This document shows, in pieces, positions 26,219 through 34,941 of a stretch of 64,000 nucleotides of DNA. Source of the stretch: Terriglobia bacterium (GTDB taxonomy: Bacteria; Acidobacteriota; Terriglobia; 2-12-FULL-54-10). The stretch lies in assembly GCA_963666975.2 (NCBI GenBank), contig CAXVYR010000003.1, forward strand, positions 1,304,577-1,368,576. The letters are read 5' to 3'. Both the position numbers and the translations under genes were made by a program. The notes under the pieces were generated by a model that was not told the origin of the DNA, ran no database searches, and saw only the letters and a program-made list of their open reading frames with translations. The stretch's first letter is position 1, and each line of letters starts with the position of its first letter.

Positions 26219-27598
26219 TCAATGGGCAGCCAAAGAACAGATGGCCGCTGCCAGCGACTCATCCTGCTCCGGAAGGACGGTGCGGAGGTCCAGCAAGACA
26301 GCGCCCGATTCTACCCTTACAATCACCGGAGGTTGCCAAGACCGCAGGCGGCCTTCCAGCAACGTGGCATTTTCCCCGTCATGCTGCAGGGCTATCAGGC
26401 GGGTGGGGAGCGTTTGCCCCGGGGCCGAGCCGCCTCCAATCACCGATTCGCCGTCCTTCAGCTCCAGACGCAATGGCCCGTTCTGACAGCGCGCACAGGA
26501 TTCCAGCAATCGCTTGGCGCGGCCCTCCAGTTCCGAAACCGGAAGATCGATCATCCGAAAGACCGGAATTTGGTGGAGCTGATCTTGCAAATAAGCCAGC
26601 AAGGTGGTTTCCAGGACCGCATAAGTCAGCTTGTCCACCCGCAGCGCCCGAAACAACGGGTTGCGGCGAATTTGCTGGACAAAATCCTTCTTCCCGGCGA
26701 TCACGCCGGCCTGCGGCCCGCCCAACAGCTTGTCACCGCTGAAACTCACCACATCCACACCCGCGGCCAGGCTCATCGCAACGGTGGGTTCCTCGGCAAT
26801 GCCCCGGGAAGCCAGCGATACCAGACAACCGCTGCCCAGGTCTTCAAACACCGGGATTCCGGCTTCCCTGCCCAGATCGACAACCTCATCGAGCGCCGGT
26901 TTTTCCGTGAATCCCGTGATCCGGAAGTTGCTGGGATGCACGCGCAGGAGAAGTTTGGTTTTCTCGCTGAGCGCATTCCGGTAGTCGGCAATGCGCGTGC
27001 GGTTGGTGGCGCCCACCTCGCGCAGCACCGCCCCGCTCTTCCGCATGATGTCCGGGATGCGGAACGCCTCCCCGATTTCAACCAACTCTCCGCGCGATAC
27101 GATGACCTCGCCGCCCTCGGCCAGCGTGTTGAGAGTAATCAGCACGGCCGCTGCATTGTTGTTCACTACAATCGCGCCGGGGGCGCCCAGCAACTCTTGC
27201 AAGCGCAGGGACACATGCACGTCCCGCTCTCCTCTGCGGCCGGCAGACAGGTCGTATTCCAGATTGGAGTATTGGGTGGCCACCTCCAGGGCGTGTTCCA
27301 GCGCCTCGCGGGCCAGCGGAGCGCGCCCCAGATTGGTGTGAAGAACAACCCCAGTGGCATTGATGACGGGACGCAGCGAGCAAGCGGCCGCCTGTTCCAC
27401 GGCCCCGCTGATGCGGGTTTCGAGAAGCGTCTCCGACAGGGGCTCGGTCCGGGGCCACCGGCCATCGCGGATTTGCTGGCGGAAACCGGCCAGCACCTCC
27501 CGCACGCGGACGGTCACAAACTTCCGTCCCAGTTTTTCTCCCAGCTCCCGGATTACCGGCCGATTCAAGATTTCTTCCACAGCAGGAATCTGCCGCAA
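26219..27598 (-). CDS. selA: L-seryl-tRNA(Sec) selenium transferase
   Basis: VINATGVVLHTNLGRA, VNNNAAAV, SRGELVEIG..FRIPD, EVGATNRT, EDLGSG, FSGDKLLGGPQAG. The frame stays open upstream to about 27679, so the start may be earlier. Confidence 0.96.
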   Translation of the reverse strand: MRQIPAVEEILNRPVIRELGEKLGRKFVTVRVREVLAGFRQQIRDGRWPRTEPLSETLLETRISGAVEQAAACSLRPVINATGVVLHTNLGRAPLAREALEHALEVATQYSNLEYDLSAGRRGERDVHVSLRLQELLGAPGAIVVNNNAAAVLITLNTLAEGGEVIVSRGELVEIGEAFRIPDIMRKSGAVLREVGATNRTRIADYRNALSEKTKLLLRVHPSNFRITGFTEKPALDEVVDLGREAGIPVFEDLGSGCLVSLASRGIAEEPTVAMSLAAGVDVVSFSGDKLLGGPQAGVIAGKKDFVQQIRRNPLFRALRVDKLTYAVLETTLLAYLQDQLHQIPVFRMIDLPVSELEGRAKRLLESCARCQNGPLRLELKDGESVIGGGSAPGQTLPTRLIALQHDGENATLLEGRLRSWQPPVIVRVESGAVLLDLRTVLPEQDESLAAAICSLAAH

Positions 27599-31152: not shown

Positions 31153-31401
31153 ATGTTTATTTCAATGCAAAATGCAAGGATTTGTCTTGACTGCGATACC
31201 GTATTTGAAGAAACGAACTGCCCTCGCTGCAGCAGCGAAAGCTTCCACCCCCTGAGCAGATGGATTCGGCCTGCCATAGCCGCCGAACCGGTTGCCTTGG
31301 CCAAGAAAACAAGAAATGCCTCCCTCTTGTTGCTGGCTTCCGGGATTGCGTTTGCGGCTTGGCATTTTTTCACAAAGCCTGACAACAACTCGCCGAAGTG
31401 A
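31153..31401 (+). CDS. Small zinc-ribbon protein with C-terminal TM helix
   Basis: CLDCD...CPRC.S...PLSRW followed by a hydrophobic segment. Confidence 0.7.
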   Translation: MFISMQNARICLDCDTVFEETNCPRCSSESFHPLSRWIRPAIAAEPVALAKKTRNASLLLLASGIAFAAWHFFTKPDNNSPK

Positions 31402-31510
31402 TTTTTTACGCCGCCACCCTTCGCGCCGGAACATTCAGTGGCTGGCGCAAGTTCCCATTCTCCTCCTGCGCCCATCCGGGAACTTCTGTGCTACACTGCC
31501 CCAAAATTGC

Positions 31511-33229
31511 ATGTTGCAACATCTGCACATTGAGAATTACGCTCTGATTGAGTCCCTGGACCTGGAGTTCCACCCCGGCTTCAATCTGCTGACGGGGGAA
31601 ACAGGAAGCGGCAAGTCGATTATCGTGGACGCCGTGGGGCTGCTTCTGGGCGAAAAGGCGTCGGCGGAGATGATCCGCGGCGGAGCAGACCGGGCGAGGA
31701 TCTCCGCAGTTTTTTCCTTTTCACCATCTCCCGCTTCCGGGCATGCCGAGCACCGCCTCCATCCGCTGAAGCAGCTTCTTGCCGAAGCGGGGCTGGCCAG
31801 CCAGGAAAAGGAAGACCTCATCCTGCAACGAGACCTTTTGCTCGGCGGGAAGTCCCGAGCTTTTGTGAATCATCAGCCTGCCACCGTAGCGATGCTCAAA
31901 TCTTTGGCTCCTTTTCTGACGGAGGTCCACGGCCAGAATGAGCAGCAGGAGCTATTTTCCCCGCACGTTCAACTGGAGATGCTCGACCGCTTCGGCGGCC
32001 TCGCCGCTCTGGCAGCCACTGTTCGAGAGCAGTTTAACCTTTGGAAAGACCTCCGTCGCCAGCAGGAAGGCTTGGCTAAGCAGGCGCAAGAGCGGCTGCG
32101 GCAGATGGACCTGTGGCAGTTTCAGAAACGCGAGATCGAACAAGCCGCAATCACTCCCGGCGAAGATCAGCGGTTGGAAGAGGAAAAACTGCTGCTCGCC
32201 CATGCAGCGAAGATACAGGCCAGCCTGGCCGCTTCATTTGATCTGCTTTATGACTCCTCCCACTCCGCTGTCGCCTCCACGGCGTCTGCCAGCAAGAAGC
32301 TGGAGGAGGTGCTGCCCTATGACGCCACCTTGAAACCGCTGGCCGAGGCCTTGCAGTCGGCCCAGGTCTCGCTGGAAGACGTTTCGCTGAGCTTGCGCGA
32401 CCGATTGTCCGGGATCGAGTCCAACCCTCAACGGCTGGAGGAGGTGGAAAACCGGCTTGCCTTGCTGGAACGGCTCAAGAGAAAGTACGGTCCGACGCTG
32501 GAGGAGGTGCAAGCTTACGGGGAGCAGGTGTCGGCGCAAATCCAGGAGACGGAATCGAGCGAGGCGCTCAGCCAATCCCTCGCAGCAAAGCTTGATGAGA
32601 CCGCGGCTGCTTATCAGAAGAATGCTGAGGAACTGTCCCGCAGACGGCAGAAGGCTGGCCGGGAACTGAAAGCGGATGTCGAAAAGGAATTGAAGGCGCT
32701 GGCCATGAAGGGAACGGTGTTTGAGGTCCGGTTCACAACCTCGGCCGCCGAAGCGGATTGGCGCGCCTCGGGAATCGACCGGGCCGAATTTCTGATCTCC
32801 CCCAACCCCGGAGAGCCGCTCAAGCCCCTGGCCCGGATCGCCTCCGGCGGGGAGATTTCCCGCACGATGCTGGCGCTGGAAACCGTCCTCGACGCCCGGC
32901 GGTGTTCCGGCGGCACAGACCATGCGCTTATTTTCGACGAGGTGGACGCCGGCATCGGGGGGCGCGCCGCCGAAACGGTGGGCAAAAAGCTGCGGCAGTT
33001 GGGGAAACACCGCCAAGTGCTTTGCGTAACCCATCTGCCACAGATCGCCAGCTTCGCGCATCACCACTTCCGTGTGGAAAAAAGCGAGCGCAACCGGCGG
33101 ACAACCACCCAGGTCAAATATCTCGACGGAGAGCAACGCACGGCGGAATTGGCGCGGATGCTGAGCGGCAGCCAGATTACGGATGCCGGAATGAAACATG
33201 CGGCACAGTTACTGAAGGCGAATTCGTAG
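31511..33229 (+). CDS. recN: DNA repair protein RecN
   Basis: MLQHLHIENYALI, LTGETGSGKS, HGQNEQ, SGGEISR, IFDEVDAG, CVTHLPQIA; start at ATG 31511. Confidence 0.96.
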   Translation: MLQHLHIENYALIESLDLEFHPGFNLLTGETGSGKSIIVDAVGLLLGEKASAEMIRGGADRARISAVFSFSPSPASGHAEHRLHPLKQLLAEAGLASQEKEDLILQRDLLLGGKSRAFVNHQPATVAMLKSLAPFLTEVHGQNEQQELFSPHVQLEMLDRFGGLAALAATVREQFNLWKDLRRQQEGLAKQAQERLRQMDLWQFQKREIEQAAITPGEDQRLEEEKLLLAHAAKIQASLAASFDLLYDSSHSAVASTASASKKLEEVLPYDATLKPLAEALQSAQVSLEDVSLSLRDRLSGIESNPQRLEEVENRLALLERLKRKYGPTLEEVQAYGEQVSAQIQETESSEALSQSLAAKLDETAAAYQKNAEELSRRRQKAGRELKADVEKELKALAMKGTVFEVRFTTSAAEADWRASGIDRAEFLISPNPGEPLKPLARIASGGEISRTMLALETVLDARRCSGGTDHALIFDEVDAGIGGRAAETVGKKLRQLGKHRQVLCVTHLPQIASFAHHHFRVEKSERNRRTTTQVKYLDGEQRTAELARMLSGSQITDAGMKHAAQLLKANS

Positions 33230-33345: not shown

Positions 33346-33412
33346 CTCTGACTACACATTCATTGTGAAAGTATAATAGCATTGTGAAAGTGTATTAGAG
33401 CCGTTGCCAGCC

Positions 33413-33442
33413 TTGACAGTGGGAACCGCCTGTTCGTATAGT
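33413..33442 (+). promoter_or_regulatory. Sigma70-type promoter of the putative selenoprotein operon
   Basis: TTGACA (33413-18), 18-bp spacer containing the dyad GAAC-N5-GTTC, TATAGT (33437-42). Confidence 0.65.
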
Positions 33443-33467
33443 TAAATCGAGGATAGGCAAAACCGTC

Positions 33468-33788
33468 ATGGAATCTAATCCGAAACGCGCAGGCGTTGTG
33501 GCCATTGCAGCCGCTCTGCTGGCGCCCAGTTGATGAGTGCTTCCTCAAGTCCTGGCAGGACTTGGCTTATTGTCGCTGTTGAGCGCCAGCTGCCTGTTCT
33601 GGCTGGAACGGTTGCAGCCGGTCTTCATCACGATGGCGGTGGGCGCGCTGGCCTACGAGGGTTGGCTGGTGCATCGGCGTCCCCGGTTCCTCCGGACACG
33701 GGGAATTCTGGCCATCCTTTGGGGGAGCATCGTCATCAATATATTAGTGCTGGGAGCCTGGGTGGTGCTGTGGTTTCGTTATCGATGA
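33468..33788 (+). CDS. Putative selenoprotein: MerT/MerF-like membrane protein with tandem Sec-Sec
   Basis: MESNPKRAGVVAIAAALLAPS-TGA-TGA-VLPQVLAGLG...LERLQPVF...; the TGA pair (33531-33536) sits where MerT has (A)CC(LGP.VL..LG); 8-bp hairpin immediately downstream. Confidence 0.8.
33545..33565 (+). promoter_or_regulatory. SECIS-like hairpin
   Basis: CAAGTCCT-GGC-AGGACTTG; G-containing loop 17-20 nt after the two UGA codons. Confidence 0.65.
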
Positions 33789-33827
33789 CGGTTTCCAGGA
33801 TCGGTTTGGTCCACTGAGGAGATGCAA

Positions 33828-34304
33828 ATGAGCCACGTGAAGTCGCTTTGCCTGCTGTTCCTGCTATCGTTGCTCTCTGCGGTGGCCGCCCCGGCTCAGG
33901 TGGAGACGGTTGCGGCGCGGGCCAGCGGCATCACCTGAGCATCCTGCGCGGTGATCATGGAGATCGCCCTCAGACGCCTGGATGGCGTTGATCAAGTGAC
34001 AATCAGCATTCAACAGCAGGCCCTGTCAGTGACCCTGAAACCAGGAAGCAGGTTCGATCCCCAGGGCATCCGGGACGCCGTAGCTCGGGCCGATGTGTCG
34101 ATTCTCCGCTTCTACGTCGAGGCGCGCGGACAGGTGGAGCAAAAGGGGGACGAGCGTTACTTCGTCGCCGGCAAAGACCGCTTCCTGCTGGTCGCCTCTC
34201 GCGATGTTCCCGCCGGAGAGCCCATTTGGGTCAACGCCTTGGTTGACGACAACACCAACCCCCTCCAGATGAGAGTAAACGAACACAAACCGCTCGAGCC
34301 ATGA
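33828..34304 (+). CDS. Putative selenoprotein: secreted heavy-metal-associated (HMA/MerP-like) protein with UxxC
   Basis: RBS GAGGAG, signal peptide MSHVKSLCLLFLLSLLSAVAAPA, then GIT-TGA(33936-38)-ASC-AVIMEIALRRLDGV, matching the HMA GMTCxxC...L..L.GV motif. Confidence 0.85.
33935..33973 (+). promoter_or_regulatory. SECIS-like hairpin
   Basis: Upper stem GGTGATC-ATGGA-GATCGCC (33950-68); lower stem CTGAG/CTCAG includes the UGA. Confidence 0.65.
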
Positions 34305-34747
34305 GCGCCTCCGCACAAAGCGACAAGTCAGAATCCGCACGATATGCCGGACTGTTCCGGAGTCCTGTCCTAGACCACTTTCACCATCCGCGTAATGTCG
34401 GTGTCGCCGCCGGACACAACCAGTCCTTTCTGGAGCAAGACAACCCGTGGCAGGTCCGGTTGCGATTCACCCTGCGTGTGGAGCAAGACGGCATCGCGGA
34501 GGTAAAGTTCCAGGCGCAAAGTTGCGTCACCACCACGGCCTCGGCCAGCGCGCTGACCGTGATGGCCCAGGGAAAACGTGTGGAGGAGGCGTTGGCCATC
34601 ACTCCCGAACAGCTTTCGAGGGAGCTGGGAACGGTTCCCCCCGAAAAGATGTACTGCTGCCAACTGGCCGTGGCAACGCTTCAGAAAGCTTTGCGGTCGC
34701 CGGAACAGGCCAGTTCCGAGACGCCCGCAGAGGTGAACAAGGAGTGA
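34301..34747 (+). CDS. IscU/NifU-N-like scaffold protein, atypical
   Basis: VLDHF.HPRNVG, I.EVKF...SC....ASAS, GK.VEEA, PPEKMYCC..LAV; the first conserved Cys (NP.CGD) is replaced by NPWQV. Confidence 0.88.
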   Translation: MSASAQSDKSESARYAGLFRSPVLDHFHHPRNVGVAAGHNQSFLEQDNPWQVRLRFTLRVEQDGIAEVKFQAQSCVTTTASASALTVMAQGKRVEEALAITPEQLSRELGTVPPEKMYCCQLAVATLQKALRSPEQASSETPAEVNKE

Positions 34748-34941
34748 TTACTGCGGAACAAATCGGCGGCATGACGGTCCTCGATGCGCTGGACCTGTCA
34801 CCGGAGGTGCGGCGCTACCTGCTGCGCCGGCTTCCCGAGATATGATGCTGGCCGGGGGAAACCCTCGAAGCGGTCGCTTTGAAAAAGAAGATGGACCTGG
34901 ACGCGCTGGTCCGCATGATTCAGACCATCCTCGCTAAATAG
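34744..34941 (+). CDS. Putative selenoprotein: small DUF1858/ScdA-N-like protein with U-C
   Basis: GTG overlaps the IscU-like stop, RBS AAGGAG; MITAEQIGGMTVLDALDLSPEVRRYLLRRLPEI-TGA(34843-45)-CWPGETLEAVALKKKMDLDALVRMIQTILAK; the ETLE.A....DLD.L half of the domain lies after the TGA. Confidence 0.72.

Follow-up and report, generated by a model that had tools for sequence, protein, structure and literature searches.

What is made, and what might be carried, by an operon in which three of four genes are interrupted by in-frame TGA codons? The operon lies in the 64,000-nt stretch of a Terriglobia bacterium (Acidobacteriota) analyzed here (hereafter the window, whose positions serve as coordinates throughout; the source genome, labeled G000, is 98.9% complete), where four same-strand genes between recN (31292–33229) and a convergent open reading frame (ORF) follow one upstream promoter (Table 1). 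A first-pass annotation, made from the sequence alone, had read them as a tightly spaced selenoprotein operon for a MerT-like membrane protein, a secreted HMA protein, an atypical IscU and a small DUF1858-like protein; the extent of the operon, the single promoter and the four in-frame TGAs that it had listed are all confirmed here. Judged by comparison with homologous loci, all four UGAs are almost certainly decoded as selenocysteine (Sec, U), and the operon is, on the same sequence-based footing, a reduced copy of a five-gene module of Acidobacteriota. We regard as evenly balanced the whole explanation built on these observations, namely that this is a Sec-dependent operon that passes a thiophilic cargo, most likely a soft metal, inward by a ligand-exchange relay.

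Table 1 Coordinates of the operon, its predicted decoding elements and selA within the window
Feature	Position	Strand	Description	Basis
Sigma-70-type promoter	33413..33442	+	TTGACA-18 nt-TATAGT	11/12 consensus matches
Gene 1	33468..33788	+	106-aa MerT-like membrane protein, predicted Sec-Sec U22/U23	Pfam MerT match, TGA-TGA conservation
Tandem UGA-UGA of gene 1, read as Sec-Sec	33531..33536 (TGAs 33531, 33534)	+		conservation across loci, hairpin
SECIS-like hairpin of gene 1	33546..33565	+	CAAGUCCU-GGC-AGGACUUG G	fold, comparative invariance
Gene 2	33828..34304	+	158-aa secreted protein: signal peptide, HMA with UxxC (predicted U37, C40), 5-strand beta domain (~residues 91–155)	
UGA of gene 2, read as Sec	33936..33938	+	first Cys position of CxxC metal loop	
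SECIS-like hairpin of gene 2	33950..33968	+	7-bp stem, loop AUGGA	covariation
Gene 3	34301..34747	+	148-aa atypical NifU_N/IscU-like protein, no Sec	NifU_N E 9e-24
Gene 4	34744..34941	+	65-aa ScdA_N/DUF1858-fold protein, predicted Sec-Cys U34/C35	profile, model, homologs
UGA of gene 4, read as Sec	34843..34845	+		conservation, hairpin
Conserved SECIS-like hairpin of gene 4	34865..34882	+	UCGAAGC-GGUC-GCUUUGA	covariation
selA	26219..27598	-	Sec machinery gene, context of the operon	563.5 bits, cut-off 267.9

The case for selenocysteine is carried by conservation across genomes. An alignment of MerT-like proteins was scanned against one genome per GTDB species, and the 23 loci recovered came mostly from Acidobacteriota/Terriglobia metagenome-assembled genomes (MAGs), with single MAG titles from Binatia, Deltaproteobacteria, Armatimonadota and Clostridia. 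The tandem TGA-TGA of gene 1 occupies the same columns in every one of the 23 loci, as it does in the five metagenome loci that contain this part of the gene (5/5), and the pair of columns reads CC in all nine distant MerT-like homologs of the phylum in which it aligns (9/9); aligned with the CC of MerT homologs, UU supplies the vicinal ligand pair of the first transmembrane helix. When MerT-like proteins were searched for in a 401-genome sample of the phylum, which included G000 and no other genome of its family f1, UU was found in G000 only, together with nine weak Cys forms elsewhere. The HMA gene stands immediately 3′ of the MerT-like gene in 22 of the 23 loci, with TGA at its site in 12 and Cys in 10, and more distant HMA relatives carry UxxU forms (L027, L030 and L043). 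At the site of gene 4, nine metagenome loci have TGA-Cys, L093 and P0077 have Cys-Cys, and P0078 has Leu-Cys. The TGAs are thus conserved at protein identities of 33–93% with Cys as the alternate, and homologs with TGA and with Cys, which the first-pass annotation had proposed looking for, both occur for genes 1, 2 and 4. It had also seen each frame continue past the TGA; measured against the sister genome, the ratio of nonsynonymous to synonymous substitution rates (dN/dS) is 0.06 after UU, indicating purifying selection, and 0.48 after U37 of gene 2.

A conserved hairpin resembling the bacterial selenocysteine insertion sequence (SECIS) accompanies each site, and GG is present in all three loops; a loop G is a requirement of bacterial SECIS elements. 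The first-pass annotation had placed a hairpin behind each TGA, which holds in general and fails in one detail, as the conserved hairpin of gene 4 is not the directly adjacent one (the hairpin directly 3′ of that UGA was considered as the SECIS and rejected in favor of the element at 34865–34882). The 20-nt hairpin of gene 1, CAAGUCCUGGCAGGACUUGG, starts 12 and 9 nt past the two UGA codons and is virtually nucleotide-invariant across 23 distinct sequences: each of its six codons is represented by one codon only, the exceptions being one CAG, which keeps a G-U pair, and a GCA to GTA change in the loop, and invariant residues just beyond it use three to five codons. One SECIS hairpin appears to serve both neighboring UGA codons, which would mean that SelB delivers twice in a row, once across 12 nt and once across 9 nt. 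For the hairpin of gene 2, which lies 14 nt beyond the UGA, 87% of cells over 22 sequences are paired (slid controls, 33–55%), with compensatory changes in five of its seven pairs and a covariation score reached by 0 of 500 shuffles; it is missing from the ten Cys forms. For gene 4, 100% of 77 cells are paired in 11 sequences, one pair, formed by two synonymous sites, is A-U in some sequences and G-C in others, and the covariation score was reached by 9 of 500 shuffles; here too the hairpin is missing from a Cys form, the CC protein of L093. A scan at Rfam gathering thresholds returned rRNA and tRNA only and reported no SECIS family at any of the three sites.

The genome has the means to read these codons. 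Besides selA, which the first-pass annotation had noticed in the window and which was recovered on the minus strand at about 26240–27598, G000 contains each of the other components that it had named for checking: selB (371.8 bits), one copy of tRNA-Sec, and selD (349.5 bits; contig C4:1360322-1361257, L009), the last with one in-frame TGA, because of which selD is itself read as a selenoprotein here. TGA also serves as an ordinary stop in this genome, since genes 1, 2 and 3 each terminate in it. Decay or artefact has to be weighed as well, the TGAs being genuine stops of genes that no longer work, or errors of assembly. Genes 3 and 4 are indeed broken in the same-genus genome G001, and database gene calls do truncate at the TGAs: among matches to gene 4 in 1.84 billion representative proteins, 13 of 17 terminate one residue before the TGA. 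The TGAs are, however, conserved with Cys alternates, the sequence downstream of them is under selection, the hairpins covary, and public DNA contigs from three studies that match this stretch are identical at the sites. Contigs X1 (possibly the source sample) and X4 show 0 differences in two covering pieces, and X6 shows two, at 34655 and 34814, none at a TGA, which answers the possibility of sequencing error that the first-pass annotation had raised. Together these observations leave decay or artefact with next to no probability. The selenoprotein reading is strongly supported on five counts: conservation, Cys replacements, hairpins, selection and a complete Sec machinery. An ORF listing under translation table 11 (≥120 aa, this stretch) contains gene 3 only, just as the first-pass annotation had described an ORF track that misses or truncates the other three genes.

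Two side observations touch these sites. The gene 1 hairpin (33543–33578) is a point at which public assemblies are interrupted: a 36-nt contig meets contigs of relatives with 4–13 differences there, because several co-occurring relatives share the element. Separately, metagenome protein P0071, a 91-aa database ORF, runs from the C-terminal part of an IscU-like protein into a gene 4 homolog, of which it includes residues 1–32 before stopping at the UGA; some strain thus has a fusion or a frameshift here.

If the four UGAs are read through, which proteins result? Gene 1 matches Pfam MerT (PF02411) at E 7.7e-6 (26.4 bits, under the gathering cut-off of 32.9) and the NCBIfam MerT models at 20–26.5 bits (cut-offs 130–150). 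MerT carries a second Cys pair in its cytoplasmic loop; in the MerT-like alignment, Cys42 is the only further invariant Cys, and residues 68–78 form a loop without Cys. The product of gene 2 matches Pfam HMA (PF00403) at E 1.5e-4 (22.5 bits against a cut-off of 24.8), and its AlphaFold model (pLDDT 91.6, from a 33-row alignment) shows a helical signal peptide, then an HMA domain of beta-alpha-beta-beta-alpha-beta topology and then a beta domain of five strands. The HMA region of the model matches CopZ, MerP and the N-domains of P-type ATPases (TMt 0.72–0.89), and a structure search with the beta domain gave no convincing match. A solitary paralog of this protein, HMA(U) plus beta domain, is also encoded in G000 (contig C4:113105-113554; L034, ~1471-2000); it is 44% identical, has its TGA in the same column and lacks a MerT-like neighbor, and most of the family's genomes have similar solo copies (L017, L019, L023, L024, L035, L036 and L038-L040).

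Gene 3 is the sole operon protein that exceeds a Pfam cut-off (NifU_N, PF01592; 84.4 bits against 22), and it falls under every NCBIfam equivalog cut-off (77.9 against 187.9 bits; 54 against 192.4). Three cluster-ligand Cys residues plus an Asp make up the Fe-S scaffold ligand set of IscU and NifU. In gene 3 the motif holding the first Cys and the Asp is replaced by EQDNPW, and Cys75 and Cys118 (alignment column 119) are retained. From 72 IscU-like relatives in the database at E ≤0.001, 24 were aligned: an EQDNPW-type motif, with N48 and W50 invariant, is present in 22 of 22 members of the subfamily, all of which keep Cys75 and the Cys of column 119, and the two canonical NifU sequences in the same alignment retain the Cys-Gly-Asp motif. 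Gene 3 is intact in twelve database clusters (86–95% identity), its dN/dS against the sister genome is 0.17, and G000 encodes separate canonical IscU-like and SufU-like genes.

The matches of gene 4 to Pfam are weak and below cut-off (DUF1858, PF08984, E 0.047, 14.2 bits; ScdA_N, PF04405, E 0.16, 12.1 bits). Its model (pLDDT 93.9) resembles the DUF1858-type structure 2k5e (TMq 0.71) and that of the YtfE N-domain (5fnn; TMq 0.76), at Foldseek E-values of only 0.7–2.3, and the family profile aligns UC with the CC of ScdA (9r7j, E 0.008). The Cys-Cys homolog in L093 matches ScdA_N at E 1.1e-6 over positions 3–54 of 56, again below cut-off (28.6 bits). The first-pass annotation had called the protein DUF1858-like; it is at least as close to ScdA_N. 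A weak match of gene 4 to TIGR03980 ("redox disulfide domain") bears on a different reading, a transmembrane redox relay in which UU would shuttle reducing equivalents between the cytoplasmic UC and the periplasmic UxxC in the manner of CcdA or DsbD. TlpA-like and CcdA-like neighbors in L090 and L093, recognized by motif reading only, point the same way. Against it, the module itself is without a thioredoxin fold, HMA domains bind metal, and the MerT-like protein has one redox-capable pair, compared with the two used by DsbD and CcdA; we consider this reading very improbable.

The wider distribution of these genes indicates how the window operon came to be regarded as a reduced copy. The full module comprises genes for a MerT-like protein (UU), an HMA-plus-beta protein (UxxC or CxxC), an IscU-like protein, a SaoD-type DsrE-like protein and a ScdA_N/DUF1858-fold protein (UC). 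A metagenome scan with the IscU-like subfamily gave 19 loci, and in 16 of them a DsrE-like (SaoD-like) gene follows the IscU-like gene; the three exceptions are a contig end, L079 with the arrangement of the window, and a distant canonical IscU. The gene 4 homolog comes next wherever the contig continues (11 loci: nine UC, one CC and one cut before the site). On the other side, the HMA gene stands directly 5′ of the IscU-like gene in six of the nine metagenome loci with at least 700 nt upstream, and MerT(UU) lies beyond it in five of those six, the sixth (L079) being cut by the contig end so that only the C-terminal end of MerT appears. The DsrE-like proteins score 160–176 bits against NF040732, "DsrE-related protein SaoD" (cut-off 169), with 160.4 bits in L016 and 175.5 bits in L093. 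The genes also occur in a second order, IscU-like, SaoD-like, MerT(UU), HMA(U), in L070, L071, L073 and L075. The first-pass annotation had asked whether homologs keep the gene order, and the answer is a divided one: the MerT-HMA order and the linkage recur, and the full module has a fifth, SaoD-like gene and halves that are sometimes apart.

Variants of the module provide further observations. The IscU-like protein of the second order (L070 3185-3649; also L071, L073 and L075) matches NifU_N at E 2.5e-9, carries an N-terminal Pro-Cys-Cys-Gly-Gly extension and is without the third Cys; this one protein may do the work of both gene 3 and gene 4. L093 (1-5542, 48% GC) holds a Cys-only module of IscU-like, SaoD (over the cut-off), MerT-like(CC) and ScdA_N-like(CC) genes, whose neighbors, by motif reading only, are a small thioredoxin-like protein, a TlpA-like lipoprotein, a rhodanese-like protein and an ArsR-type regulator.

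What would such a set of proteins do? By analogy with MerP and MerT, a relay of thiophilic cargo seems somewhat probable, and the direction of transport, the physical hand-off between the proteins and the identity of the cargo are inferred. In the mechanism that we propose, the secreted UxxC HMA protein would capture the cargo in the periplasm, from which it would move to the three-helix MerT-like carrier and bind there at the vicinal Sec-Sec pair of the first helix; on the cytoplasmic side the carrier would release it to the IscU-like protein, which lacks the first Cys and the Asp, and to the small Sec-Cys protein of ScdA_N/DUF1858 fold, with the SaoD-type DsrE-like protein as an additional member in the full module. 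Transfer would proceed by ligand exchange between selenol/thiol pairs in the style of MerP to MerT. Because the cytoplasmic Cys pair of MerT is absent and only C42 is additionally invariant, the soluble acceptors may take the cargo directly. The cargo would be a soft metal ion at trace level, subject to acquisition or controlled hand-off and not to mercury detoxification; that it is a metal at all we hold tentatively, a shade below an even chance. A soft metal is favored because HMA and MerT are metal folds, because the fold of gene 4 is that of a domain attached to di-iron RIC proteins, and because SaoD relatives outside the SAO system are reported beside metal importers (in the accessible text of the Haft preprint, 10.1101/2022.07.06.499078, they mostly neighbor components of metal-import ABC systems).

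The most familiar cargo for a pair of this kind would be mercury, with the MerP-/MerT-like proteins importing Hg(II) for detoxification and the selenols raising affinity. MerP and MerT are the closest characterized analogues, and it is established chemistry that selenolates bind Hg very tightly. Plain mercury detoxification is nevertheless disfavored because no MerA exceeds the cut-off in the genome; moreover, no regulator gene adjoins the operon among the window genes and ORFs inspected, the cytoplasmic-loop Cys pair of MerT is missing, and the genes flanking the module are housekeeping genes that vary from locus to locus. This agrees with the view of the first-pass annotation that the operon is not a classical mer operon, and we judge mercury handling quite improbable. 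The best of eight matches to the MerA model, a candidate elsewhere in the genome, was rejected: it scores 401 bits against 454 and has neither a C-terminal Cys pair nor an HMA domain. Flanks compared in L077, L082, L087 and L089 have nothing in common outside the five genes and, because they differ, offer no clue to a regulator or an enzyme.

Several observations weigh against a metal relay built on four selenocysteines. Genes 1, 2 and 4 remain below the curated Pfam and NCBIfam cut-offs, and the 60 nt downstream of each UGA, folded as single sequences, give weak z-scores (−0.58, −1.33 and −1.42), because of which we relied on the comparative hairpin evidence. Contigs from an RNA library (X19) over 33459–34704 are only 85–95% alike, come from a relative and possibly from DNA, cover genes 1–3 and neither gene 4 nor the promoter, and are not proof of transcription. 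The halves of the module are unlinked in some genomes (L090, L094 and G007). In G007 the IscU-like, SaoD-like and gene 4 (UC) genes share one contig and MerT/HMA lie on others, L090 and L094 show no MerT/HMA upstream, and G008 has SaoD-like and gene 4 (UC) genes without an IscU-like gene. No SaoD-like gene was found in G000, either by tblastn or with NF040732 (0 matches; genome 98.9% complete), and five of the family's 13 other genomes have one. In G001 (L015/L054), a genome of the same genus, genes 1 and 2 are intact as MerT(UU) and HMA(U), and the other two are pseudogenes: gene 3 has lost 2 nt behind its start and contains a TAA, and gene 4 has a 7-nt insertion and a TAG; because both are broken, the cytoplasmic half may be dispensable or decaying in this genus. 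Finally, sulfur is the classical cargo of DsrE-like and IscU-like proteins, and the rhodanese-like and thioredoxin-like neighbors in L093 (motif reading) favor chalcogen or redox chemistry.

This last point opens onto a chalcogen relay, in which selenium or sulfane sulfur would be brought into the cell on Sec/Cys pairs, in the form of Se-Se or Se-S adducts, and feed SelD or another acceptor by way of the IscU-like, SaoD/DsrE-like and UC proteins. The DsrE and IscU/NifU families are known sulfur carriers (10.1101/2022.07.06.499078, in its accessible text), the IscU-like protein keeps two Cys and not the Fe-S ligand set, the Cys-only L093 has the neighbors just mentioned, and every carrier seen uses Sec; in addition, the available part of a 2026 review states that no specific high-affinity selenium transporter is known in prokaryotes. 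On the other hand, the HMA and MerT folds are known with metal ions only, no linkage to selD was seen in G000 (where selD is on another contig), a need for Sec proteins to import selenium would be circular, and SaoD relatives are reported beside metal importers. We consider a chalcogen relay unlikely. Its narrower form, a dedicated high-affinity pathway for selenium/chalcogen uptake in which Se-Se/Se-S adducts pass from the periplasmic UxxC through the membrane Sec-Sec to the UC, IscU-like and DsrE-like carriers, is more doubtful again; if true, this would make it the first prokaryotic importer specific to selenium. The reading that we prefer remains a Sec-dependent relay for a soft metal.

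The surroundings of the operon add a few features of their own. Genes 2 and 3 overlap in ATGA and genes 3 and 4 in GTGA, and most of the regions compared 5′ of MerT-like genes contain a TTGACA...TATAGT or TAGGATG box comparable to the promoter of the operon. The spacer between the -35 and -10 boxes (33419–33436) contains a partial GGAAC...GTTCG-like dyad that recurs across several genera (L055, L060 and L068) and may be a candidate operator for an unlinked regulator. Immediately 5′ of the promoter is a direct repeat, CATTGTGAAAGT(A/G)TA, at 33361–33375 and 33380–33394 (19 nt apart), of which one diverged copy only is visible in the sister genome. A complete rRNA operon (16S, tRNA-Ala, tRNA-Ile, 23S and 5S) lies ~4 kb downstream on the minus strand, at 38996–44642.

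These observations matter in several respects. Gene callers conceal three of the four operon proteins, and the selenoproteome gains a predicted vicinal Sec-Sec pair inside a transmembrane helix and, for the ScdA_N/DUF1858 fold, a predicted Sec-Cys variant. In a phylum dominant in soils, a MerT/MerP-type pair is tied by a conserved link to a trio of IscU-like, SaoD-like and ScdA_N-like proteins; should the cargo be a trace metal or selenium, the module would offer a testable handle on how soil Acidobacteria acquire and route thiophilic elements. It may also illuminate the role of the unexplained ScdA_N domain in RIC proteins, and UGA-UGA with a single nucleotide-frozen hairpin lends itself to testing how much variation in spacing bacterial SelB/SECIS decoding tolerates.

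How, then, does the operon compare with systems already described? It resembles the MerP/MerT pair of mer operons in placing a periplasmic HMA protein with a two-ligand loop beside a small three-helix carrier with a vicinal pair in helix 1, the genes being adjacent and co-oriented. It departs from that pair in its UU and UxxC motifs, its sub-cut-off Pfam scores, the absence of a Cys pair in the cytoplasmic loop and the extra beta domain on the HMA protein, and from mer operons as a whole in having no adjoining merR and no MerA over the cut-off and in being chromosomal with variable flanks. Gene 3 is like IscU, NifU and SufU in its clear NifU_N match and its second and third Cys, and unlike them in that the first Cys and the Asp are replaced. 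Gene 4, at scores below the curated cut-offs, has the small helical fold of DUF1858 proteins and of the ScdA_N domain of RIC/YtfE/ScdA, with UC aligned to the CC of ScdA, and differs from RIC/YtfE/ScdA in being a stand-alone protein of 65 aa without a di-iron domain; its motif is UC, neither CC nor the catalogued DUF1858 CxxU.

Sec versions of proteins of the Mer/HMA type had been said by the first-pass annotation to appear in earlier surveys, and curated Sec forms of MerT, HMA and DUF1858 proteins were found. NF045683 (MerT/CopZ fusion-like heavy metal transport selenoprotein) is of the same kind, with a cut-off of 375 bits of which the MerT-like and HMA proteins here reach 14.2 and 27.7, encoded by two genes and not by a fusion; so is NF041115 (UxxU metal-binding selenoprotein), where the score is 41.4 bits against 95 and the motif UxxC. 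The accessible parts of the literature list MerT selenoproteins with a C/SxxU motif (Zhang, table of the 2026 review), a small group of MerT selenoproteins with a CU motif (Haft preprint, 10.1101/2022.07.06.499078), a UxxC cation ATPase, a DUF1858 CxxU selenoprotein and multi-selenoprotein operons such as SAO and Tso. The MerT and HMA motifs of the window are thus UU and UxxC, compared with the catalogued CU, C/SxxU and UxxU. With the SAO system (selenocysteine-assisted organometallic; Clostridioides difficile and other anaerobes; Haft and Gwadz), in which SaoD occurs with SaoL, SaoP, SaoA, SaoB, SaoX, SaoE, SaoC and SaoT, the module shares a multi-selenoprotein locus, a metal-like cargo and a SaoD DsrE-like member; unlike SAO, it has a MerT-like carrier and not an ABC transporter, belongs to Acidobacteriota and not Firmicutes, and in its window copy is without SaoD. 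In an NCBIfam scan, the four window proteins matched no Sao model and six locus proteins matched SaoD only, SaoL, SaoE, SaoC and SaoT not having been searched for in the genomes. The UU MerT-like protein, the UC ScdA_N/DUF1858-like protein and the five-gene neighborhood do not appear in the accessible text of 10.1101/2022.07.06.499078, PMC9312934, PMC13188914, PMC12013277 and PMC13326102, which cover the literature in part, and literature searches returned no account of the module. An earlier description may therefore exist, and the kind of protein is already catalogued; what this locus adds to these systems is the UU and UC motifs, together with the gene neighborhood in which they are found.

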